NCBI GenBank assembly: GCA_009695275.1
Contig: SIBF01000004.1
Coordinates: forward strand, 1 to 53,475
Source of the DNA: Pedosphaera sp.
Lineage (GTDB): Bacteria > Verrucomicrobiota > Verrucomicrobiia > Limisphaerales > F1-12-MAGs170
DNA length: 53,475 nt
Reading direction: 5' to 3'
The translations under genes and the position numbers were made by a program. The notes under the pieces were generated by a model. The model did no database searches. It saw only the letters and a program-made list of their open reading frames with translations, and was not told the DNA's origin. Each line of letters opens with the position of its first letter. Position 1 is the first letter of the stretch. Below, piece by piece: positions 3,073 to 53,319 of the stretch.

Positions 3073-4569
3073 TCAAACTTCACCGAACTTCCTGCGCAAG
3101 TAATCCAGGTGATACCTCGCCTGCGTAGCCTCGCCAGTTGCCGAGTGCATGAGCTGCGGTGGTTCGAAGCGTTGTCCGTGCTGGTGGACTTTGTTCCGGA
3201 GCCAGCCAAGGAGGCTTGAGTAGTCGCCGTTACCGAGTTGACTCTGAAGGTCCGGGAGGTTGGCGCTGGCACAGTGGAAGAGCTGGGAGGCGTTCAAATT
3301 GCCGAGCGTATAGGTCGGGAAGTAGCCGAAGTTTCCAAAGCTCCAGTGGATGTCCTGCAAACAACCGAGTGCGTCATTCGGCACCTTGAGCCCCATCAGT
3401 TTCTCGAACTCTTCATTCCAGACGTGCGGGACGTCCGCAACTTTGAGGGCGCCTTCAATCAAGCGTGTTTCAATCTCGAAGCGCAGGATGATATGGAGGT
3501 CGTAGGTCACTTCATCCGCTTCGACACGAATGAAAGAAGGTTCAACCCGGTTGACAGCAGCGTGCATCGCCTCGGGAGTGAACCTGGTCAATGAAGGAAA
3601 GTGTTTCGCGGCTCGCGGGAGCCAGTGTTCCCAAAAGGTGCGACTTCGGCCGACGTGGTTTTCCCAGAGGCGCGATTGTGATTCGTGAATGCCGAGCGAG
3701 GCGGCAGATCCGAGCGGCGTGCCGTGGGCCTCACGGCGAATGCCCTGCTCATACATTCCATGTCCCGCCTCGTGGAGGACGCCGTAGAGGGATTCAGTAA
3801 AGTCGGCTTCGTTGTAACGGGTCGTCAGCCGGCAATCGCCGGGACTGATGCCCGAGCAAAAGGGATGGGCCGTGGTGTCGATTCTTCCAGCCTTGAAGTC
3901 GAAGCCGAGTGCTTCGGCCACTTCACGATTGAAGGCTTGTTGAGCGGCGATGAGGTACTGGCCTCGAAGCATATCCGCAGGCAATCGGGCGCTGCGCTCG
4001 CCTGCGATCCGTCCGAGTTCCGCGATGACCGGGCGAAGTTCGCTGAAGAGTTTCTTCAATGCCGCGGCGCGGGCACCGGGTTCATAGGATTCGAGCAACG
4101 CGTCGTAACGGCTTTGTTCGTAACCCCAGCAATCCGCCATCCGGAGGCTCAGTTGCAGAAGTTTTTCGAGATGGGGTTGAAAGATGGGAAACTCGGACTT
4201 CTGTCGTGCCTCAATCCAGGCTTCGCGAGCAAAAGACTGCGCGCGTTGCAGCTCTTCGACGAGTTCAGCGGGCACTTTGGTTTTGCGGTCATAGGCACGG
4301 CGCCATTCACGGACGTTCGCCGCCTCATCAGAGTCGGGTGTGAATCCGTGATCTTCGCAGGCCTTGATCCAATCACCCACTTCCGGCTTCGTGAAAAGGC
4401 GGTGGGTCCATCCACCGAGATGCGCCAGTTGTTCCGCGCGGAACGGCAGGCACTCCGGTGGCATGCAGGTCTCCTGATCCCAGCTCAGGAGCTGGCAGGC
4501 GCTGTCGATAAGACCTATCTCGCGACTTCGGTGAAGGAGGTTTGAATAGGGTTGGGAGGGTTCGGTCAT
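3073..4569 (-). CDS. M32 family carboxypeptidase (carboxypeptidase Taq-like metallopeptidase)
   Basis: HEAGHGMYEQG (HExxH) followed by IHESQSRLWEN, plus an LLSWDQETCMP N-terminal motif typical of M32. Start ATG 4569 avoids overlap with the helicase stop; the track start is 4599. Confidence 0.9.
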   Translation of the reverse strand: MTEPSQPYSNLLHRSREIGLIDSACQLLSWDQETCMPPECLPFRAEQLAHLGGWTHRLFTKPEVGDWIKACEDHGFTPDSDEAANVREWRRAYDRKTKVPAELVEELQRAQSFAREAWIEARQKSEFPIFQPHLEKLLQLSLRMADCWGYEQSRYDALLESYEPGARAAALKKLFSELRPVIAELGRIAGERSARLPADMLRGQYLIAAQQAFNREVAEALGFDFKAGRIDTTAHPFCSGISPGDCRLTTRYNEADFTESLYGVLHEAGHGMYEQGIRREAHGTPLGSAASLGIHESQSRLWENHVGRSRTFWEHWLPRAAKHFPSLTRFTPEAMHAAVNRVEPSFIRVEADEVTYDLHIILRFEIETRLIEGALKVADVPHVWNEEFEKLMGLKVPNDALGCLQDIHWSFGNFGYFPTYTLGNLNASQLFHCASANLPDLQSQLGNGDYSSLLGWLRNKVHQHGQRFEPPQLMHSATGEATQARYHLDYLRRKFGEV

Positions 4570-4577
4570 GGTTGCTT

Positions 4578-6731
4578 TCAATAGCTTCGCAGGTTCCATT
4601 CGTTGAGCAGCTCGGTCGGGAGCTCGCGGAGGAAGCGGGAGGGTTGTTGCATCATGTCACCACCGTAACCCGCTGAGGCACGAATCAGCGGATAGCTCAG
4701 GTAAAGTTCATTCTTCGCCCGTGTCACCGCGACGTAGAACAGCCGCCGTTCCTCCTCTTCGTTTTCGATCCGCTCCAACGAACGCGCAGAGGGAAACATT
4801 CCGTCGCACAGCATGATGAGGAATACGACGGAGAACTCGAGCCCCTTCGCCTGGTGAATCGTCGAGAGCTTGAGTTCTTCGTCATCTTTATTCTTCGGAC
4901 GTTCATCATCGGCTTCGATGTTCGAAAGAAGGGCAAGTTGCGTGAGGAATTCTCCGGCGGTTTTGAATTGCCGCGCAAAGGTCGCGAGTTGATCCAGATC
5001 TTCAAGGCGATTGCGGTAATTGGGAAAGTTCTCCTTGAGGTAATCCTCGTAGTTGGCTTCAACAGCGAGACGAATCACCTCGGCTGCGTTGGAGAAGACT
5101 GGCTCGGAGTCGAGTTGCGCCATGGTGATCGCGAACTGCGCCCACGCGACCGCGGTTTTCTTGCCCACGGCCGAAGAACAACCTTGCAGCGCGGTGCCGA
5201 GAATCGGGCGATGGGGCGGAGGCACTCCTTCCACCGAAGAGGGACGGGCCGGACTCGCCGCTTCAACTTTTGTCAGCTCGCCCAGAAATCTATGCCAGAG
5301 TTTATCCGCGCCCTTGCCGCCGACGCCCGGCAAAAGTCGGACGAGACGTTTGAACGAAAGTTCGTCGCGAGGGTTGTTGACCAGTTTGAGGTAGGCCGCC
5401 ACGTCCTTGACGTGGGCTTGCTCGAAGAACCGGATGCCGCTCGTGATGCTGAAGGGAATGTTGCGGCGGGTAAGTTCCAACTGAAGTTCGAGCGCGTGAA
5501 AGTGAGAGCGATAGAGGACCGCCATGTCGTTCAGACTGGCTCCCTCGTCGCGGAGTTCGAGCGCTCGTTGAGCGACGAAGGCAGCCTGCTCCGCTGCATC
5601 ACCGCAGACAACGAGCGCCGGAACCGGCCCTGTCTTGCGCGCGGGAACGAGCAGCTTGGCGAACTGTTGAACATTGGGCGCGATGGCGGCGTTGGCGAGC
5701 GAGAGGATCTCCGGCGTGCTGCGGTAATTCGTCTCGATCTTATAGACCTTCGCGGTCGGGTAGCGCTTTGGAAACTCAAAGATGTTTTGAAAGTTGGCGC
5801 CGCGCCACGAGTAGATGCTTTGCGAGTCGTCGCCGACAACCATGACGTTATGATGCCGCGCGCCAAGCAGATCAATGATGTCGCTCTGGAGTTTGTTGGT
5901 GTCCTGATACTCATCAACGAGGATGAATTGGAAGCGACGCTGGTAAAGTTCCAGCACGTCAGGAAAATCGTTGAGGAGCTTGAGCCAAAATACAAGAAGG
6001 TCATCGAAGTCCATCACGTTGGTCGATTGCTTTCGCTTTCGGTACTGTGCGTCGATCTGAATGATTTGTTCTGCGATCGGCTGGAAGCTCGAGTAATCCC
6101 CGGCGAGAATTTGCGGGATTGTCCGTTGCGTGTTCACCGCCATTGAAAAGACATCGTTCAACACTTCGGCCTTCGGAAATCGCGTCGCCTTCACATCAAT
6201 CCCGGCGTCATCCATGCAAGCTTTCAAAAGATCCTTGCTGTCCTCTCGATCCAGAATTGTGAAATCGGGCTTGTAACCGAGCTGGTCCGCGTGACGACGG
6301 AGGATTCGGTTGCCGATCGAGTGGAATGTTCCACCCCAGAGCGCCGTGATGTCGTTCCCCAGAATGTCCGTTATTCGTCGCATCATCTCCTTGGCCGCCT
6401 TGTTGGTGAACGTCAGGAGAAGAATACGTTCCGGGGGAATGCCCTGTTCCAGCAGATAGGCAACCCGGTAGGTGAGAGTGCGGGTCTTGCCGGAGCCGGC
6501 GCCGGCGATGACAAGCGATGGCCCCGGAAGAGCGGTGACGGCGGCGTGCTGTTGTGCGTTCAGCTCGCGGGCGTAATCGATTTGCAATTCGACCGGCGCG
6601 CTGAACGGTTGCAGCACATAATCACGAGACATGCCGTTGAAGTTACCGGCACGCGGGGAGAAGGGAAAAGATGAAAAGGCAACTCGATCAGTAATTTCTG
6701 GAGAACTCCGCCATTGACGCTCCGTGATCAT
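4578..6731 (-). CDS. UvrD/PcrA/Rep-type ATP-dependent DNA helicase (SF1)
   Basis: Walker A AGAGSGKTRTLTYRVAYL, DEYQDTN motif II, TNYRSTPEIL and TIHQAKGLEF motifs. Alternative start at ATG 6632 (MSRDYVLQ). Confidence 0.9.
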   Translation of the reverse strand: MITERQWRSSPEITDRVAFSSFPFSPRAGNFNGMSRDYVLQPFSAPVELQIDYARELNAQQHAAVTALPGPSLVIAGAGSGKTRTLTYRVAYLLEQGIPPERILLLTFTNKAAKEMMRRITDILGNDITALWGGTFHSIGNRILRRHADQLGYKPDFTILDREDSKDLLKACMDDAGIDVKATRFPKAEVLNDVFSMAVNTQRTIPQILAGDYSSFQPIAEQIIQIDAQYRKRKQSTNVMDFDDLLVFWLKLLNDFPDVLELYQRRFQFILVDEYQDTNKLQSDIIDLLGARHHNVMVVGDDSQSIYSWRGANFQNIFEFPKRYPTAKVYKIETNYRSTPEILSLANAAIAPNVQQFAKLLVPARKTGPVPALVVCGDAAEQAAFVAQRALELRDEGASLNDMAVLYRSHFHALELQLELTRRNIPFSITSGIRFFEQAHVKDVAAYLKLVNNPRDELSFKRLVRLLPGVGGKGADKLWHRFLGELTKVEAASPARPSSVEGVPPPHRPILGTALQGCSSAVGKKTAVAWAQFAITMAQLDSEPVFSNAAEVIRLAVEANYEDYLKENFPNYRNRLEDLDQLATFARQFKTAGEFLTQLALLSNIEADDERPKNKDDEELKLSTIHQAKGLEFSVVFLIMLCDGMFPSARSLERIENEEEERRLFYVAVTRAKNELYLSYPLIRASAGYGGDMMQQPSRFLRELPTELLNEWNLRSY

Positions 6732-6928
6732 TCGGCTTAAGTTCCGCGACGTGATCGTCAGCAGCCATCGATTTACCGGCCTGTTCGTGAACTGGTGCTA
6801 TTACTTTAGCTCCCGTCTCCTGCGCGCCGGGCTTGTCTGACCAAAACAATCTGACCCGTGCCGCAGGTGAACCGCCTGCGGCATTTTTTGTTGAGCGCAG
6901 CGCGATTCAAGTAAACCAGAAAAAAGTT

Positions 6929-7942
6929 ATGATCGTAGTTCTCAAACCCAAAATTAGCGCGAAGGAAGAAAAAGCTGTGCTCTCGGAAATCAAAAAACTC
7001 GGGTACAAACCGCACGTCATGCGGGGCGTCGAACGCACGGTGGTCGGTGCCATCGGAGACGAGCGGAAGCACAAGTCTCTCGAAACCCTGACCACATGGT
7101 CCCAGGTCGAGCAGGTCATGCCGGTCCAGAAGCGTTACAAACTCGTCAGCCGCGAGGCGCATAAGGCTAATTCCACCATCAACGTCCGGGGGAATATCGT
7201 GGGCGGGAAGAAATTCCAGGTCATGGCCGGCCCTTGCTCGGTTGAAAGCGAGCAGCAACTTCTGAAGACAGCTCACGCCGTCAAGAAAGCGGGCGCCACA
7301 ATTCTGCGCGGGGGAGCCTTCAAGCCACGCACTTCGCCCTACGAATTCCAGGGCCTCGGCCTCAAGGGACTCAAGTTGCTCGCCAAAGCCAGGAAAGAAA
7401 CGGGCCTCCCGGTCATCACGGAGCTGCTTTCCGAAGACCACGCCGAACTCGTCGCCGAGTACGCGGACATCCTCCAAATCGGCGCCCGCAATGCGCAGAA
7501 CTTTCAATTGCTCATCGCCGCTGCGAAGACAGGCAAGCCAGTGCTGCTCAAGCGCGGCCTCTCGATGAAAATCGAGGAATGGCTGCTCGCCGGCGAATAC
7601 ATCCTCGCCAATGAGAATCCCAACTTGTTCTTCTGCGAGCGCGGCATCCGCACATTCGAGACTTACACTCGCAACACTCTCGATCTCTCGACGATCCCGA
7701 TCATAAAGAAAGAATCCCATTGCCCGATCGTGATCGATCCGAGCCAGGGTGCTGGCCGTGCTGATCTCGTGGTCGCCATGTGCAAGGGCGCCGTTGCAAT
7801 GGGAGCTGACGCACTGCTGATCGAGGTTCATCCGAATCCAGCGGAAGCCTGGAGTGACGGAGCACAGCAGGTGACGCTGGAAGGCTTCGCCAAACTCATG
7901 GAAGAGCTCCAGCCATTCATCACAGCAGCGGGGAGAGAATAG
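6929..7942 (+). CDS. aroF: 3-deoxy-7-phosphoheptulonate (DAHP) synthase, type I-beta, with N-terminal ferredoxin-like regulatory domain
   Basis: MIVVLKPK N-terminus, then GPCSVES, GGAFKPRTSPYEFQGLG, IGARNAQNF and CERGIRTF. From memory it aligns along its whole length with Thermotoga-type DAHPS. The track start 6833 is a TTG; ATG 6929 is preferred. Confidence 0.9.
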   Translation: MIVVLKPKISAKEEKAVLSEIKKLGYKPHVMRGVERTVVGAIGDERKHKSLETLTTWSQVEQVMPVQKRYKLVSREAHKANSTINVRGNIVGGKKFQVMAGPCSVESEQQLLKTAHAVKKAGATILRGGAFKPRTSPYEFQGLGLKGLKLLAKARKETGLPVITELLSEDHAELVAEYADILQIGARNAQNFQLLIAAAKTGKPVLLKRGLSMKIEEWLLAGEYILANENPNLFFCERGIRTFETYTRNTLDLSTIPIIKKESHCPIVIDPSQGAGRADLVVAMCKGAVAMGADALLIEVHPNPAEAWSDGAQQVTLEGFAKLMEELQPFITAAGRE

Positions 7943-44048: not shown

Positions 44049-44193
44049 CAGTTGAAATGGAGAGCGCGGTCGTCTCGACCGCTGTTCTCGGCGTCTCGCC
44101 GAGAACTCAGTGGGCGTGACCAGTCACCAGAGGGTGGGTTTCCGGAGCGGACGAGCTGGTCAGCGAGACGCTGACCAGGGCGTGCGAGACGCA
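44049..44193. repeat. REP-like palindromic doublet (REPIN-like), intergenic
   Basis: Ends are ggagagcgcggtcgtctcgaccgc and gcgtgcgagacgcacgcgctcccc. Internal hairpins are gttctcggcg-tctc-gccgagaac and ctggtcagcg-agac-gctgaccag. Lies between convergent genes. Confidence 0.75.
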
Positions 44194-44219
44194 CGCGCTC
44201 CCCAATTGCGACTGAATAG

Positions 44220-45454: not shown

Positions 45455-48400
45455 TCACGCCAGGAGTGCTTTGGCCTTTGCCAACGCCTCGTCCAGCTTG
45501 CCCGGATCCTTGCCGCCACCGCGTGCGTTGTCGGGTTTGCCGCCGCCTTTGCCACCGACGATGGGGGCGATCTGCTGGATGATCTTTCCGGCCTGCACCT
45601 TCGCGGTGAAGTCCGGTGAGACGGAGGCGACCAGTGAGACGGCGTTGTTCGCTGCCCCACCGAGGACGATAACACCCTTGAACCGGCTCTTAAGCGCATC
45701 CACCACGGCTTGGAGATAATCCGCGTCGCCATCGGGGAAACCCTGCGTGATGAGCGGGATGCCGTTGACCGTCTCCGACCGGGTGAGCAACCAGGCCGCG
45801 GTCTGCGCCGCGTTTCGGGCGATGGACGTCTTGAGCGCCTTCTCCGACTCCTTCTGCTGCGCGAGCAGGCTCTCGACTTTCTTCTCCAACTCGGCGACGG
45901 GGGAATTCAACTTTCCCGCGACGGTGCGAAGGAGGTGAAGTTGCTGGTTCGCGAGTTCGTAAGCGGTGAGGCCGGCAACGGCTTCGATACGGCGCACGCC
46001 GGCAGCAATGGCGTTCTCGCTCACGATGCGGAACAGGCCAATCTCGCCTGTCGCACGGGTGTGGGTGCCGCCGCAGAGTTCCATTGAGTAACCATCCAGT
46101 TTGTTCGCCGCGCCGCCGATCTGGACGACGCGTACGGTGTCGCCGTATTTGTCGCCGAAGAATTGCATCACGTCCTTGCGCGATTTCACGTCGGCGTAGG
46201 GGACTTCGGTCCACGAGACGCCGGTGTTTTCAAGAATGCGTTCGTTGACGAGTTTCTCGATGTCGGCAACCTGCGCGGGTGTAAGCGGCGCGCTGTTGAA
46301 GTCGAAAGTCAGCTTGTCCGGGCCGACGAATGAACCTTTTTGCGACGCTTCCTGGCTTACGACTTCGTGCAGCGCCCAGTGGAGCAAGTGCGTGACGGTG
46401 TGGTGACGTTGGATGGCACTGCGGCGTTCGTGATCGACGGTGAGAAGGACTTCCGAACCGACAATTGGCAGCGCGTCGCCAGACGCGCTGGGAGCGCGAC
46501 CGTCCCGGTCGCCCTGCTGCGCGTCTCGCGCAGCAGATCGGTGGGGGTGGAAAACGAGAAACGTTGAGGAACTCGCGGCACCCTCGCGCGGGGAATCGGT
46601 CGGCGAGACGCCGACCGATGCGACCGGGACGGTCGCGCTCCCCTCTTCGATGAAATGGAGCCAGGTGTTGCCGGATTTTTGCGTGTTGGTGATGCGCCAG
46701 AGCTGGCCGCCGCCATTCAATTCGCCGGTGTCACCGACCTGGCCGCCCATCTCGGCGTAGCAGGCGGAAGCATCGAGGATGACAGCGGTCTTGTCCTTGA
46801 GCGAGACGACCTCCAGGACTTTGGCTTGGACGGCGAGGTGCTCGAAGCCGACGAACTTCGTGGGTGTCGTGGTCTCGATTTTCGAAAGTGAAATGACTTC
46901 CTTCTTCTGCGCGGCACGGGCGCGGGCGCGCTGCTCTTTCATCAGCTCTTCAAAGCCCTCCACGTCCACCGTCAGGCCACGTTCGCGCGCCATCAACTCG
47001 GTGAGGTCGAGCGGGAAGCCCTGCTCGTCATAAAGCCGGAACGCGAACGCACCTGAGATTTGGGCAGGGATGGCTTGGGGAGCGCGCCCGCCCCGGGCGC
47101 TGTTTCCCGCGCCCTCGCGGGAAACGGTCGGGCGTGGGACGTCACCGGACGCCGAGATTTCATTGTGCGTTCCCGAGCCGCCCGGGGCGGGCGCGCTCCC
47201 TGGCGCATCGGGAGTCCACAGCCAGCGATAATTCTCCGACGAGGGAACCACGGCGTTGTCCCAGGGATTGCGGCAGATGTAATGAAACTTCTCTTCCAAG
47301 TCCGAGTCGCCTCGCATCAGGCGGTCAAAAAAATCTTCCTCCCAAATATGAACTCCAGAGACCTTGGCCGCTTTGTTGATCTTGTGTGCGGTCGTGGACT
47401 TGATTCCGTGGAGGATTTCTCCGAGCGGATAAAAGACCGGTTTGCCGTCTTTGTCTTGCTCCTTGATTTGGGGTTCGAACAGCAGGTGAACATGGTCGGG
47501 CATCACGCGCGCGGCAAAAAGTTGATACTGCCGATGGGTGTGAGCATAGAGAACGCTCTCCAGCACGATGTCGCGCTCGGCCGGAGTGAGTTGCCGTTTC
47601 TCTCGCGTGGAGAAGGTCACCATGTATTTGCCCCAGGGTCGTTCGAAATGCGGCAGGCGTCTTTTGGAATAGGTAGCACCGGGGTTGTCGGACGCTCTGG
47701 GGCCGACCGCGAGGGCGCGGTCGGCTGCGCCCGGGGCGGGCGCGCTCCCCATCACCAATGGAAGCGGCGATCCCGCAGTCATGTGTGTCTTGTTTCCAAG
47801 TGTAATTCGAGCGGGACCACCCTGAATCAGACTCGCTTCCTCGTTGAAGAGCGCGATACCTTTGTCGAGCGTCTTGTTAAACGCCTCCTCCTCACGCTGG
47901 ATGACCTCCTGCACATGGGCTTTCCGGGCGCGAATTTCAGGGAAGACATCGCCCATTGTGTCGGCGAGCACGTCCACGAGCTTGTAGAAGAACGGTTGGT
48001 GGAAGCCGAGCGTGCGGCCGTAGCGCACGGCGCGGCGCAGGATGCGGCGGAGGACGTAGTTGCGGTCGGTGTTGCCGGGTTGGATGCCGTCGGCAATCGC
48101 AAACGAGAGCGTGCGGATGTGATCGGCAATAACCCGGAAGGCGATATCGAGCGCGATTTGCTCCGCACCATGGGCAGCGCGACCGTCCCGGTCGCTCTGT
48201 TGCGCGTCTCGCGCAACAGCCCCGGGGGTGTGGGAAGCGAGAGATGTTGAGGAACTCGCGGCACCCTCGCGCGCGGAATCGGTCGGCGGGACGCCGACCG
48301 ATGCGACCGGGACGGTCGCGCTCCCCGTCGCTTCGCGACGTAGCTTTTCCTCGGTCGCAGCGTCGGGTGTCCAGAGCCATCGATAGTTTTCCGTGGATGG

Positions 48401-49867
48401 CGCGACGCCGGAATCCCACGGGTTGCGGCAGATGTAGTGGAACTTCTCTTCGAGATCGGCGTCGCCACGAATCATGCGGTCGAACGATTCGTTCTCCCAC
48501 ACTTGGCCCGTGGTGTTTTCCGCCTTGTTGATCTCGTGGGCGGTGAACGATTTGATTGAGTGCATCAACTCGGACAGCGGCCAGAACACGGGCTTGCCTT
48601 CCTTGTCCTCCTCTTTGATCTGCGGCTCGAACAGGAAATGAACGTGATCGGGCATGACGCAGGCGGCATACATCTGATAGCGGCGCTGATCGTGTCCGAA
48701 AAGGAGGCTCTTGAGCACGATGTCCTGCGCTTGCGGCGAAAGCTGACGACGCTCGCGCGTTGTGAAACTAACCATGTATTTCGCCCACGGATGCTCGAAG
48801 TGCGGAAGGCGGCGCTTGTAGTAGGTAGCTTGAGGAGCGCGACCGTCACGGTCGCTCTGCTGCGCGTCCCGCGCGGCAGATCCGGGAGCGTGGGAAGCAG
48901 ATGATGCCGTTGGACTCGTCGCGCGCGTGGGATCGGGCGGCGGGACGCCGACCGGGGCGACCGGGACGGTCGCGCTCCCCGCTCCCTGCGGGAGTGTGCT
49001 GCCATAGCGTTTTCCACTCATTGCTTCCAGCGCGTCGAAGATCGGCCGAAAGATGTCGGTTTCATAGTTGGAGATTCTGGCGTTGGCGAAATCGGTCAGA
49101 CCCTTTGTGCCCTGCATGATGCTCGTGACGCGCTCGAAGCCCATGCCCGTATCCACGTGCTGGGCAGGCAACGGGGAGAATGTGCCGTCCGGGTTCGCGT
49201 TGAACTGGATGAAGACCAGGTTCCAGATCTCGATGCAGCGGGCGTCGCCTTTGTTGACAAGTGAACCCTTGGTGTCGCCAGCGGGCGTCAAATCAACGTG
49301 CAGTTCGGAGCAGGGACCGCATGGCCCGGTCTCACCCATCATCCAGAAGTTGTCTTTCTTGTTGCCGTTGACAATGTGGGCGGCGGGATCGAGGCCGACG
49401 CTGCGGAACTTTTCGGCCCAGAAGTTCCATGCTTCCTCGTCGCGCTCGGCAGGATCACCAATGGATTTGTCCGGATTGTAAATCGTGGCATAGAGCCGTT
49501 GGGGCGGAAATTTCCAGACACCGATAACCAATTCCCACGCCCACTCAATAGCCTCTTTCTTGAAGTAATCGCCGAAGGACCAGTTGCCGAGCATTTCGAA
49601 GAACGTGTGGTGGTAGGTATCAAGGCCGACGTCGTCGAGGTCGTTGTGCTTGCCGCCGGCGCGGATGCACTTCTGGGTGTCGGCGGCGCGGCCGGGTGTG
49701 TAGGGGCACCTGGTCTGGCCGAGGAAGATGGGCACGAACTGGTTCATGCCGGCGTTCGTGAACAGGAGGTTCGGCGAATCGGGCATTAGCGAGGACGATG
49801 GGACGATGGAGTGCTGCTTCGACTTGAAGAAGTCGAGAAACGACTGGCGGATTTGCGAACTCGTCAT
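45455..49867 (-). CDS. alaS: Alanine--tRNA ligase with three in-frame REP/RAYT insertions (1470 aa)
   Basis: ATG 49867 (MTSSQIRQSFLDFF). FTNAGMNQF, RAGGKHNDLDDVG, HHTFFEMLGNWSFGDYFK, WMMGETGPCGPCSE, VDTGMGFERV; FRVIADHIRTL; FRLYDEQGFPLDLT; editing HTVTHLLHWAL and CGGTHT; C-terminal GGGGKPDNARGGG. A single ORF with no internal stops. Confidence 0.9.
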   Translation of the reverse strand: MTSSQIRQSFLDFFKSKQHSIVPSSSLMPDSPNLLFTNAGMNQFVPIFLGQTRCPYTPGRAADTQKCIRAGGKHNDLDDVGLDTYHHTFFEMLGNWSFGDYFKKEAIEWAWELVIGVWKFPPQRLYATIYNPDKSIGDPAERDEEAWNFWAEKFRSVGLDPAAHIVNGNKKDNFWMMGETGPCGPCSELHVDLTPAGDTKGSLVNKGDARCIEIWNLVFIQFNANPDGTFSPLPAQHVDTGMGFERVTSIMQGTKGLTDFANARISNYETDIFRPIFDALEAMSGKRYGSTLPQGAGSATVPVAPVGVPPPDPTRATSPTASSASHAPGSAARDAQQSDRDGRAPQATYYKRRLPHFEHPWAKYMVSFTTRERRQLSPQAQDIVLKSLLFGHDQRRYQMYAACVMPDHVHFLFEPQIKEEDKEGKPVFWPLSELMHSIKSFTAHEINKAENTTGQVWENESFDRMIRGDADLEEKFHYICRNPWDSGVAPSTENYRWLWTPDAATEEKLRREATGSATVPVASVGVPPTDSAREGAASSSTSLASHTPGAVARDAQQSDRDGRAAHGAEQIALDIAFRVIADHIRTLSFAIADGIQPGNTDRNYVLRRILRRAVRYGRTLGFHQPFFYKLVDVLADTMGDVFPEIRARKAHVQEVIQREEEAFNKTLDKGIALFNEEASLIQGGPARITLGNKTHMTAGSPLPLVMGSAPAPGAADRALAVGPRASDNPGATYSKRRLPHFERPWGKYMVTFSTREKRQLTPAERDIVLESVLYAHTHRQYQLFAARVMPDHVHLLFEPQIKEQDKDGKPVFYPLGEILHGIKSTTAHKINKAAKVSGVHIWEEDFFDRLMRGDSDLEEKFHYICRNPWDNAVVPSSENYRWLWTPDAPGSAPAPGGSGTHNEISASGDVPRPTVSREGAGNSARGGRAPQAIPAQISGAFAFRLYDEQGFPLDLTELMARERGLTVDVEGFEELMKEQRARARAAQKKEVISLSKIETTTPTKFVGFEHLAVQAKVLEVVSLKDKTAVILDASACYAEMGGQVGDTGELNGGGQLWRITNTQKSGNTWLHFIEEGSATVPVASVGVSPTDSPREGAASSSTFLVFHPHRSAARDAQQGDRDGRAPSASGDALPIVGSEVLLTVDHERRSAIQRHHTVTHLLHWALHEVVSQEASQKGSFVGPDKLTFDFNSAPLTPAQVADIEKLVNERILENTGVSWTEVPYADVKSRKDVMQFFGDKYGDTVRVVQIGGAANKLDGYSMELCGGTHTRATGEIGLFRIVSENAIAAGVRRIEAVAGLTAYELANQQLHLLRTVAGKLNSPVAELEKKVESLLAQQKESEKALKTSIARNAAQTAAWLLTRSETVNGIPLITQGFPDGDADYLQAVVDALKSRFKGVIVLGGAANNAVSLVASVSPDFTAKVQAGKIIQQIAPIVGGKGGGKPDNARGGGKDPGKLDEALAKAKALLA
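46490..46642. repeat. REP doublet family A (insertion 3 in alaS), 153 bp
   Basis: Exact 23-nt inverted termini gggagcgcgaccgtcccggtcgc / gcgaccgggacggtcgcgctccc, plus inner hairpins with tctc/gaga loops. Translated as 51 codons, GSATVPVASVGVSPTDS...DRDGRAP. Confidence 0.85.
47078..47200. repeat. REP doublet family B (C-terminal flank of insertion 2), 123 bp
   Basis: Exact 22-nt inverted termini gggagcgcgcccgccccgggcg / cgcccggggcgggcgcgctccc. Inner hairpin tttcccgcg-ccct-cgcgggaaa. Translated as 41 codons. Confidence 0.85.
47201..47727 (-). mobile_element. RAYT-type (IS200-like Y1/HUH) transposase module 2, fused in-frame inside alaS
   Basis: YSKRRLPHFERPWGKYMVTF..., HUH motif PDHVHLLF, and catalytic-Tyr motif KFHYICRNPW. 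No start or stop of its own; same frame as alaS. Confidence 0.8.
47728..47749. repeat. Single family-B REP (N-terminal flank of insertion 2)
   Basis: cgcccggggcgggcgcgctccc, identical to the right arm at 47179..47200. Preceded by the hairpin gccgaccgc-gaggg-gcggtcggc. Confidence 0.75.
48173..48325. repeat. REP doublet family A (C-terminal flank of insertion 1), 153 bp
   Basis: Left arm ggcagcgcgaccgtcccggtcgc (1 substitution), right arm gcgaccgggacggtcgcgctccc. Same internal layout as 46490..46642. Confidence 0.85.
48326..48832 (-). mobile_element. RAYT-type (IS200-like Y1/HUH) transposase module 1, fused in-frame inside alaS
   Basis: YYKRRLPHFEHPWAKYMVSF..., HUH motif PDHVHFLF, and KFHYICRNPW. 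169 codons, no stop, same frame as alaS. Confidence 0.8.
48833..48979. repeat. REP doublet family A (N-terminal flank of insertion 1), 147 bp
   Basis: Left arm aggagcgcgaccgtcacggtcgc (2 substitutions), right arm gcgaccgggacggtcgcgctccc. Translated as 49 codons, GSATVPVAPVGVPPPD...DRDGRAP. Confidence 0.85.
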
Positions 49868-50077
49868 TCGTTGAAATGTTAAATCGTTAAATTGTGAACC
49901 GTAAAATCTTTGCCGCGAAAGAACGCAGAGAACACAAAGAATTCTTCCGCAACAAGGCGGGGAAACTAGCCGAAACCGTCCACGAGAGGCGAGTGGAAGT
50001 TTTGGCCCTTTTGGAGGTTCCACTGAAGAGGCAAGCGTGCCCGGCAGCCTTTTCCGACAAAACAGCCGGAAGAGTAT

Positions 50078-52866: not shown

Positions 52867-52958
52867 CCGGCGGAAACTAAGCAGCGGCTTCGTGAGTTAC
52901 GATGGAAAAATGAGGTTGGCGCTGATTGCCGAAGGCTCTTATCCGAATCCATGCAACA

Positions 52959-53140
52959 GGAGCGCGGAATTCATTCCGCGTGGATCCTGCAAGGCCCCAA
53001 GGGCTGTAGGCTCGACGACATGCCAAGTGATCAAAAACCAGGTCATAGGAAAGTGACCAACGCGAAAAGCAATTTGCCGCGGCCGAAATCTCCGGCCAAA
53101 GTGGGAATTCCACGCGGCTGCGGAATAAATTCCGCGCTCC
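52959..53140. repeat. REP-like doublet, third family (GGAGCGCGGAAT..ATTCCGC)
   Basis: Left arm ggagcgcggaattcattccgcgtgga. Right arm (reverse complement) ggagcgcggaatttattccgcagccgcgtgga. Accounts for the spurious 138-aa ORF at 52877..53293. Confidence 0.7.
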
Positions 53141-53319
53141 TATTGAATTGTTCCGCATGTCCGCTGCGAGGCCTCCCCCAATTGACTTACACTCGGTGAA
53201 GTAATGAAAGACAAGCTGTTTTGACTGGCTGTCCCTTCGAACGATGCTTTCGCCACCGTAAAGCCCATCGTTGATGGAATGAAGGACTCTCACCGCTTTT
53301 CCATTGAGGGCGCGCTCCC

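Follow-up and report, generated by a model that had tools for sequence, protein, structure and literature searches.

The alanyl-tRNA synthetase (AlaRS) gene alaS of a Pedosphaera species, located on the minus strand of a 53,475-nucleotide (nt) stretch of contig SIBF01000004.1 (the window), is interrupted in frame by repeats of the repetitive extragenic palindrome (REP) type. A first-pass annotation, made from the letters of the window, had noticed four inverted doublets of these repeats within the gene, all with lengths divisible by three (3n) and all in the same codon phase, and had proposed either insertion at a phase-linked target or purifying selection on length and peptide properties. Our analysis shows that these doublets are REPINs (REP doublets forming hairpins) flanking two REP-associated tyrosine transposases (RAYTs) nested in frame within alaS, and we consider it likely that translation of the whole array in a single frame is what forces its modules to be 3n.

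Architecture of the alaS reading frame

The open reading frame (ORF) spans 45455-50023 (-) and has 1522 codons, being open upstream of the ATG at 49867 as far as a GTG at 50023; the ATG agrees with the starts of the orthologues (MTSSQIRQSF). Pfam profiles recovered from this ORF the tRNA-synt_2c domain (1.3e-171), split in three stretches, together with the tRNA_SAD and DHHA1 domains, and besides these AlaRS domains two IS200-like Y1_Tnp domains. Alignment of the product with human AlaRS (PDB 4xem) is broken at the insertions only, with short gaps falling between residues 297/304 of the human protein for site 1 and 415/426 for site 2. The class II catalytic core, the editing (SAD) domain, DHHA1 and the signature of purifying selection mark the host protein as AlaRS, the ratio of non-synonymous to synonymous differences (pN/pS) being 0.11-0.22 in the AlaRS segments between the window and locus L090, the nearest relative examined (87% nt identity over the ~1 kb that align best, a segment covering RAYT1 and the 3' REPIN). 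There are three in-frame insertions (Table 1), all in hypervariable loops. Across 121 AlaRS sequences, namely the window and its 120 closest orthologues (76-81% identity, 897-1402 residues), the loop at site 1 ranges from 10 to 289 residues, that at site 2 from 19 to 284 and that at site 3 from 25 to 80.

Table 1. Coordinates of alaS, its insertions and the REP elements of the window
Feature	Coordinates	Strand	Description
alaS (alanyl-tRNA synthetase) reading frame	45455..49867	-	1470 codons from ATG at 49867; no internal stop in translation
alaS site 1	48173-48979		269 codons; REPIN(147)–RAYT1–REPIN(153)
alaS site 2	47078-47749		224 codons; single REP–RAYT2–REPIN(123)
alaS site 3	46490-46642		51 codons; lone REPIN(153), loop before editing domain
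RAYT1, REP-associated tyrosine transposase domain	48326..48832	-	169 codons, in frame with alaS; Pfam Y1_Tnp
RAYT2, paralogous RAYT domain	47201..47706	-	in frame with alaS; 70% amino-acid identity to RAYT1
Site-1 cassette 5' REPIN	48833..48979	-	147 nt; encodes GSATVPVAPVGVPPPD…SDRDGRAP; repeat families D1, D2 (direct), I12 (inverted)
Site-1 cassette 3' REPIN	48173..48325	-	153 nt; encodes GSATVPVASVGVPPTDS…SDRDGRAA
Site-2 cassette single 5' REP	47707..47749	-	family B (GSAPAPGAADRALA); inverted repeat I2
Site-2 cassette 3' REPIN	47078..47200	-	family B; 123 nt; encodes GSAPAPGGSG…NSARGGRAP
Site-3 lone REPIN	46490..46642	-	family A; 153 nt; encodes GSATVPVASVGVSPTDS…GDRDGRAP
Intergenic REPIN between convergent ORFs	44049..44214	.	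REP-to-REP core 44060-44202, 143 nt; outer inverted repeat (CAGTTGAAATG-like) each side
Doublet of different REP family	52958..53141	.	184 nt; AGGAGCGCG tag shared, stem GGAAT/ATTCC; inverted repeat I13

Two tyrosine transposase domains without stop codons

Both Y1_Tnp domains display the HUH (histidine-hydrophobic-histidine) motif, the catalytic tyrosine and the fold of Y1 HUH transposases. In RAYT1 the HUH motif takes the form PDHVHF and the catalytic tyrosine lies within FHYICRNPW; an alignment of 74 sequences places the histidines H112/H114 and Y182 in invariant or near-invariant columns. The NCBIfam model REP_Tyr_transpos (NF047646) matches RAYT1 with 78.5 bits across positions 4-145 of 146 and RAYT2 with 72.5 bits. 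An identity as IS200/IS605 elements was considered and rejected: the IS200 model NF033573 scores 19.8 and 20.9 bits, far under its cut-off of 55, and the two copies are paralogues of 70% identity at fixed orthologous sites. Because a phmmer search of RAYT1 against the PDB sequences returned no match at E≤1, the fold was assigned via structure prediction and Foldseek. The AlphaFold2 (AF2) model of the site-1 insertion has a predicted local distance difference test (pLDDT) score of >90 across the RAYT core, and Foldseek searches with this core gave as best matches 2f4f (IS200 transposase) and 4er8 (the Escherichia coli RAYT with a REP hairpin), these and the TnpA proteins of ISDra2 and IS608 being matched with E ~5e-6. 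The REPIN-encoded segments of the same model are predicted to be disordered (block-mean pLDDT 36-65), their sole secondary structure being a helix (residues 205-217) at the junction of the RAYT with the 3' REPIN.

The RAYT domains bear signatures of strong purifying selection. RAYT1 compared with nested orthologues in five other genomes shows ratios of non-synonymous to synonymous rates (dN/dS) of 0.03-0.09, with dS saturated; the RAYT2 orthologue in L065 shows dN 0.07 and pS 0.72; and pN/pS for the RAYT between the window and L090 is 0.11. RAYT2 falls in a clade of the RAYT tree separate from that of RAYT1.

Neither domain has a stop codon. For RAYT1 a scan from the alaS codon at 49021 downstream found no in-frame ATG, GTG or TTG before the Met codon at 48775, which is situated inside the domain, past its conserved N-terminal strand. 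At site 2 the start-type codons TTG-GTG-ATG (47758-47750) directly precede the REP of the RAYT2 cassette. With RAYT1 lacking a start and both RAYTs lacking a stop, the RAYT would be made only by ribosomes that began on alaS, and AlaRS only by read-through; AlaRS and RAYT1 would thus each be obtainable only by translating the whole 1470-residue polypeptide.

Why the modules are multiples of three

With the GGG…CCC boundaries used by the first-pass annotation, the four doublets have exactly the lengths it gave (Table 1), and each is flush at both ends with codon boundaries of the minus-strand ORF. All four heads read GSA(T/P)…, in agreement with the G-S-A that it had stated; the tail R-A-P is found in only three of the copies, the doublet at 48173-48325 opening on the plus strand with GGC AGC GCG and hence ending on the coding strand in CGC GCT GCC (R-A-A). 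A fifth coding REP, the single unit at 47707-47749, had escaped its list. The two intergenic doublets had been given as 44049-44193 (145 nt) and 52959-53140 (182 nt); their coordinates are revised here to 44060-44202 (143 nt) and 52958-53141 (184 nt). Neither length is 3n, and the contrast between genic and intergenic copies in the window survives the revision. The boundaries themselves (GGGAGCGCG … CGCGCTCCC) are arbitrary, a convention, because conservation of the REP runs beyond them to a T-G at -5/-4; comparison of filled and empty sites fixes the element ends only to about one codon, the closest uninterrupted orthologues being just ~80% identical.

It had seemed puzzling that each part of insertion 1 is individually 3n when only its total length needed to be. 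The puzzle disappears with the RAYT ORF between the doublets, which had been overlooked: the total is 3n because the alaS ORF is intact, and the parts are 3n because the RAYT ORFs lie between the doublets. As the RAYT is under purifying selection in the alaS frame, the 5' doublet and the 3' doublet must each be 3n. Furthermore, the four doublets are not independent cases, as is seen from their relationships to each other.

Hairpin structure and probable concerted evolution of the REPINs

RAYT1 is bracketed by the inverted pair I1 (48264-48324 with 48834-48894) and RAYT2 by the pair I2 (47076-47120 with 47707-47751; 89% complementary), so that cognate inverted REPs stand on both sides of each RAYT, as in REPIN-RAYT systems. 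Within the site-2 3' REPIN the pair I15 has 22-nt arms that are 100% complementary. Folded as single-stranded DNA, the site-3 REPIN reaches -67.1 kcal/mol (z = -10.6) and the site-2 3' REPIN -56.6 kcal/mol (z = -7.4); the two ends of the folded REPIN pair with each other, and inner hairpins form on each arm. The elements thereby combine a tag and GC-rich hairpin with an inverted REP pair that forms a long hairpin, the structural hallmarks of REPs and REPINs. A sequence logo of 237 unique heads from related genomes consists of TGGGGAGCGCG and a 7-bp stem, with conservation reaching the T-G at -5/-4; the variable stem positions 6/7 and 15/16 show complementary base frequencies (A/T, C/G), a pairing that is partly imposed by the filter, which pre-selected heads with at most one stem mismatch. 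A mostly intergenic family of 143-148-nt REPINs has an extra outer inverted repeat, CAGTTGAAATG. In the window, 9 of the 11 REP units of the family lie inside alaS, the other two making up the intergenic REPIN, which lies 1.3 kb past the alaS stop. Several loci per metagenome-assembled genome (MAG) are found among the matches listed for an exact 22-mer in MAGs and metagenomes.

Between the window and L090 the REPIN segments show pN/pS of 0.59-1.09. Their arms of ~45 nt are nearly identical at all codon positions and the central spacer drifts freely; conservation at every codon position suggests that the arms are constrained as DNA hairpins and not as peptide. Three of the four doublets belong to family A, and the REPIN copies group by genome and not by site: the copy at site 3 shares 90% identity with the site-1 3' copy from its own genome versus 77% with its positional orthologue in L090, and the two copies of L032 are 97% identical to each other. 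This pattern points to concerted evolution or re-copying of the family-A doublets within alaS, by which the length and phase of a doublet would automatically be preserved. Arm conservation at the DNA level, beyond what synonymous sites lead one to expect, and homogenisation within genomes are indirect signs that the RAYT may cleave or mobilise its REPs.

A census of doublet lengths and head frames

The first-pass annotation had proposed a genome-wide scan of genic and intergenic copies as the test of its claim. Scans of genome and metagenome collections with the exact 22-mer of the family-A head retrieved at least 119 and at least 120 loci respectively (~1.5 Mb); the titled loci of the genome collection are mostly from Verrucomicrobiota/Limisphaerales/Pedosphaera MAGs, and the metagenome contigs come without taxonomy. 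False REP heads that passed the hairpin filter in ordinary coding sequence were removed on reading the peptides (L010, L025, L043, L073, L075, L082, L089, L095), spurious long antisense or GC-rich ORFs were left out (L028, L037, L118, L043, L033, L194), and REPINs just upstream of signal peptides were counted as 5' untranslated region and not as genic (L014, L021, L030, L037, L018, L055, L066).

The listed loci hold 122 doublets, 100 non-genic and 22 strictly genic. Lengths modulo 3 (0:1:2) are distributed 41:31:28 in the non-genic set, for which uniformity is not rejected (P=0.25), and 12:1:9 in the genic set, in which every 3n copy lies in alaS. Lengths of 107, 113 or 125 nt (3n+2) occur for the genic doublets in ValRS (three sites), AddB and a radical-SAM CofH/MqnC-like gene, and a length of 142 nt (3n+1) for one in an FG-GAP/TPR protein. 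These copies rule out 3n length at the GGG…CCC boundaries as a general property of genic doublets: the regularity first reported holds for the alaS of the window and fails for genic doublets outside alaS.

What does emerge from the scan is an excess of one head phase. Counting independent host-site events outside RAYT flanks in Pfam-verified genes, with independence judged by host and site, the GGG-AGC-GCG (GSA) frame accounts for 11 of 15 (P=0.0018 against 1/3; P=0.0047 against the 0.37 expected from stop-free frames). These eleven are alaS site 3, ValRS sites a, b and c, the radical SAM gene, AddB, two DNA methylases, a PMT_2/TPR membrane protein, GltB and a thioredoxin-like protein; the GAR frame is used twice (the 96-nt copy of alaS site 3, and L221) and the ER frame twice (L042, L182). 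If an L015 element that lies in another frame at ValRS site a is included, the count becomes 11/16 (P=0.004-0.01). Avoidance of stop codons can be dismissed as the sole cause of the bias, the three head frames being open in 84, 62 and 81% of intergenic copies; the earlier argument to this effect stands, as does its observation that all three coding-strand frames of the doublet at 46490-46642 are free of stops (frame 0 of the plus strand does contain a TGA). The frames differ in the peptides that they encode: the arginine fraction of head-frame peptides is 0.13 in the GSA frame versus 0.20 and 0.23 in the others, and the net charge of the GSA peptides is the lowest. Among tail frames, the neutral ATGTVALP and the charge-balanced DRDGRAP are used, and the basic RPGRSRS almost never. 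At alaS site 3 some genomes have the 153-nt GSATVPVA copy and others the 96-nt GARPSRS copy, and ValRS site a behaves likewise.

Nested and free-standing RAYTs in other genomes

In-frame RAYTs are present in 15 of the 121 AlaRS sequences (site 2 in 10, site 1 in 3, both sites in 2) and are associated with at least 5 REP families; some of these proteins are labelled 'alanyl-tRNA synthetase/REP element-mobilizing transposase RayT' in IMG. All 10 RAYTs found in the window and the at least 119 genome loci lie within alaS. In a rough neighbour-joining tree the nested RAYTs group in a few clades apart from the free-standing RAYTs, and changes from one of sites 1 and 2 to the other are occasionally seen. 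The GSA phase is kept in nested RAYTs of other REP families as well (GSAPAPGA, GSARVPRA, GSARGPRA, GSAGASPA, GSTRVPRV).

Querying 1.84 billion cluster representatives exhaustively with RAYT1, without a profile, extends the range of hosts. Among the best 150 matches, 37 are proteins of at least 400 residues, 17 of which are AlaRS; the remaining long matches include RecG (5), ValRS (2), PurH (2), DNA methylases (2), PriA, BirA, Ham1/RdgB, a glycyl-radical enzyme and DUF1156. In complete hosts (e.g. RecG P0246, PriA P0300, BirA P0328, Ham1 P0364) the RAYT lies between split host domains. REP-like peptides flank the RAYT in most such host proteins (among P0245-P0379), those on the 5' side in RecG and PriA reading GS(A/T)…. 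At the DNA level a second host gene with a nested RAYT is seen in metagenome contig L224 (7570-10983, +), where an ORF of 1138 residues for a DUF1156/D12-type DNA methylase contains an in-frame RAYT of another subgroup (…SRGYLPHFD…), flanked by single REPs that are read as PGARASRA (GAR frame) and ATGTVALP.

In free-standing homologues of ~205 residues the start codon precedes the 5' REP by a few codons, and the repeat is translated as …GSARASRA…. The homologue in L120 (1501-2121, +) reads CTG GGG AGC GCA… through its 5' REP at the DNA level and is wedged in a pilM / Amuc_1100-like / secretin (pilus/secretin) operon, its ATG lying 1 nt past the upstream stop and its own stop overlapping the ATG of the next gene; the ORF encloses the 5' and 3' REPs and extends only slightly past either of them. 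Stand-alone copies, too, look like in-line insertions dependent on host transcription.

Several further observations concern the alaS loops and the annotation of these genes. The loops are general sinks for insertions. Other inserts occur in orthologues at site 1 (P0123, P0125, P0131, P0137, P0155, P0160) and site 2 (P0127, P0155), in the form of tandem low-complexity repeats (GSTDKATGSTGKPAGSADKP…, PKSGCEEPKSGYAQ…, PGVLPGHPG…) or helical insertions of 100-200 residues. Further REP families are translated in AlaRS and ValRS loops (L047, L097, L148, P0128; e.g. GQASSLS…RQDACPT, …ETENLKLETAP…), and in L047 a fourth alaS site, which belongs to the C-terminal domain, is occupied by a REP (…ARDTQQSDRDGRAPHIIENLG…). 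At site 2 of the window ~26 additional residues (IQGGPARITLGNKTHMTAGSPLPLVM; 47750-47782, -) precede the cassette; they are missing from the orthologue P0147 and finish in the TTG-GTG-ATG directly ahead of the REP head. The entries P0003, P0008 and P0067 are short 'RAYT' or hypothetical proteins from internal Met codons inside alaS (e.g. MVTFSTREHRQL…), or fragments joining alaS and RAYT.

Proposed mechanism and alternative explanations

In the explanation that we favour, each REP–RAYT–REP cassette occupies a surface loop of the essential alaS that is hypervariable and permissive, in the orientation and frame of the host, with an additional copy of one cassette REPIN in a third loop. The REP and REPIN segments would serve as disordered linkers of ~15-50 residues around independently folded RAYT domains, the 5' linker delivering the ribosome in frame to the RAYT and the 3' linker returning it to the alaS frame. 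Three causes may together account for the GGG-AGC-GCG phase. One would be that, in this RAYT clade, the REP natively has this phase with respect to the RAYT ORF; another, that three of the four doublets are of one family, whose copies gene conversion or re-copying probably keeps similar within each genome; and in other genes, selection may retain the frame of small neutral residues (GSATVPVA…) and not those with arginine clusters (GARPSRS, ERDRPGR), with toxicity of the peptide as the putative filter on frames. The RAYT, for its part, may mobilise or homogenise the REPINs. Of the two options first proposed, purifying selection is the one supported, by the 11 of 15 events in the GSA frame and its lowest arginine content, and phase-linked targeting is not.

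That second option, in which the REPIN/RAYT machinery inserts by a short target biased to one codon phase (e.g. after NTG/ATG), would make the phase mechanistic and not selected. IS200/IS605 relatives integrate on the 3' side of a fixed sequence of four or five nucleotides, the positions -5 (T) and -4 (G) beside REP heads show partial conservation, and Met often precedes GSA, the string ATG GGG AGC GCG being seen in L032, L113, L015, L065 and site 2 of the window. However, the logo in which the T-G flank is conserved pools genic and intergenic copies, and the flank is visible beside intergenic doublets, where it is equally frequent although there is no codon phase; it looks like a part of the element. 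REPINs also lie in differing frames within the same loops across genomes, frames f1 and f2 occur in real genes, and the flanks of at least 13 genic sites share no target beyond TG…CA. We therefore regard this explanation as unlikely. Still less credence is due to the idea that this alaS is a redundant or decaying paralogue tolerating junk, with the regularities a coincidence of small samples. There are indeed just four doublets in the window, and alaS holds most of the REP units of its 53 kb; against this, the AlaRS segments are under purifying selection (pN/pS 0.11-0.22), the ORF is unbroken across 4.4 kb, the same architecture recurs in many genomes in what is there retrieved as the closest AlaRS orthologue, and the frame bias is repeated in unrelated host genes, all of which makes it very improbable.

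Removal of the insertions before the protein functions, as inteins, as introns or by programmed DNA excision, would render their in-frame state incidental. Inteins with homing endonucleases are typically found in essential genes, elements of the IS200/IS605 type can excise precisely from single-stranded DNA, and presence of the cassettes varies among close AlaRS orthologues. Yet Pfam detects no Hint domain in the product, and the junctions QGA|GSATV, DGRAA|HGA, LVM|GSAPA and GGRAP|QAI lack the Cys/Ser/Thr…His-Asn residues of splicing, by which an intein is rejected. Group I/II introns and other known RNA elements are likewise ruled out, as no Rfam family reached its gathering score anywhere in the window. 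Moreover, strict conservation of frame, which holds for every cassette in every genome except L090, would be needless if the insertions were removed. We hold removal to be extremely unlikely.

Several points weigh against nesting of functional RAYTs as we describe it. The scores of both domains with REP_Tyr_transpos are slightly under the equivalog cut-off of 80, and purifying selection on the RAYT could reflect the folding need of an inserted domain alone and not transposase activity. The frame bias rests on 15-16 events whose independence was judged from host and site; other frames are used by the 96-nt copy at alaS site 3, by L221, L042 and L182 and by the element in L015, and the GAR frame of the 5' REP in L224 means that the native phase is not universal. 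In L090 the N-terminal part of alaS (…GKKYGSTLPAKQFPKP…) is shifted by one base against the frame of RAYT1, the 5' REPIN is missing and the gene is apparently split (7003-7890 and 4205-7327, -), which may be due to mis-assembly of a short-read MAG or to a genuine disruption. The ~160-kDa AlaRS-RAYT chimera encoded by the alaS of the 53-kb window is a predicted product, and its activity is putative.

Beyond the window, a broader proposal is somewhat less than an even prospect, namely that a whole clade of RAYTs might reside obligately, and in frame, within essential or housekeeping genes (AlaRS, ValRS, RecG, PriA, PurH, BirA, RdgB and others). Such residents would be intein-like without splicing: the RAYT would be an internal domain translated with its host, protected by the indispensability of the latter, and the chimera would be the active form that maintains the REPIN population.

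Relationship to known systems and significance

The components belong to the known REPIN-RAYT system (Nunvar 2010; Bertels & Rainey 2011, PMC3116915; Bertels 2017, PMC5581495; E. coli TnpAREP, PDB 4er8). As in that system, a Y1/HUH transposase lies between inverted REP hairpins whose 5' tag is conserved, the REP doublets form one long hairpin, every RAYT paralogue is paired with a REP family of its own, and the pattern is one of low copy number, fixed position and vertical, housekeeping-like inheritance. In contrast to it, the RAYT here is embedded in frame in the interior of an essential ORF and lacks a stop of its own (RAYT1 also lacks a start), the REP flanks are translated, the tag is GGGAGC and not GTAG, and most REP units of the window are intragenic and not extragenic. 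Intragenic REPs in frame, including ones in tRNA synthetase and DNA repair genes, are thought to lie in loops or linkers, and the verrucomicrobium Opitutus terrae has the most intragenic GTAG REPs, according to Di Nocera et al. 2013 (PMC3733652), which also presents the Rickettsia palindromic elements (RPEs) as analogous in-frame palindromic inserts. REPs have further been found in frame within tnpAREP genes themselves (PMC6006769). The intragenic REPs and RPEs resemble the present elements as short palindromic repeats in frame in functional protein genes; such accounts cover small repeats only and no nested transposase gene, the passages searched mention no codon-phase bias, and the RPEs are an unrelated family of sequences that has no RAYT associated with it.

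Inteins with homing endonucleases offer another parallel, that of a selfish or domesticated nuclease gene in frame in a conserved essential gene, translated with its host and shielded from loss by the lethality of imprecise deletion; unlike them, the present insertions have no Hint domain or splice-junction residues and apparently stay in the mature protein on flexible linkers. With TnpA (Y1) of IS200/IS605 the RAYTs share the fold, the HUH/Tyr chemistry and the recognition of subterminal hairpins on single-stranded DNA, but they are not multi-copy autonomous elements here, and their flanks are inverted REPs common to an apparently dispersed REPIN population. A full-text literature search found no paper on a RAYT nested in frame in alaS or another host gene, and the nested in-frame lifestyle in housekeeping genes is apparently undescribed. 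A large survey of HUH proteins dropped 'unexpectedly long proteins' as fusions or errors, and nested cassettes are mis-annotated in public data by gene callers and family surveys.

The insertions provide natural maps of the loops of AlaRS, ValRS and RecG that tolerate large insertions, and natural disordered linkers encoded by DNA hairpins, in which conservation of the arms at the DNA level and neutral evolution of the peptide are combined as a dual constraint within one coding segment. RAYTs have been described as single-copy, vertically inherited, 'domesticated' transposases of housekeeping-like behaviour, with the force selecting for them and their persistence given as unresolved (PMC5581495). 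A RAYT inside an essential reading frame, in many genomes and several hosts, opens the question of persistence to testing, since the host gene would be broken if the RAYT were lost or decayed, and RAYT expression would be tied to translation of the host. If the clade indeed consists of obligate residents, this would be a concrete mechanism for the vertical, single-copy and housekeeping-like persistence of RAYTs.

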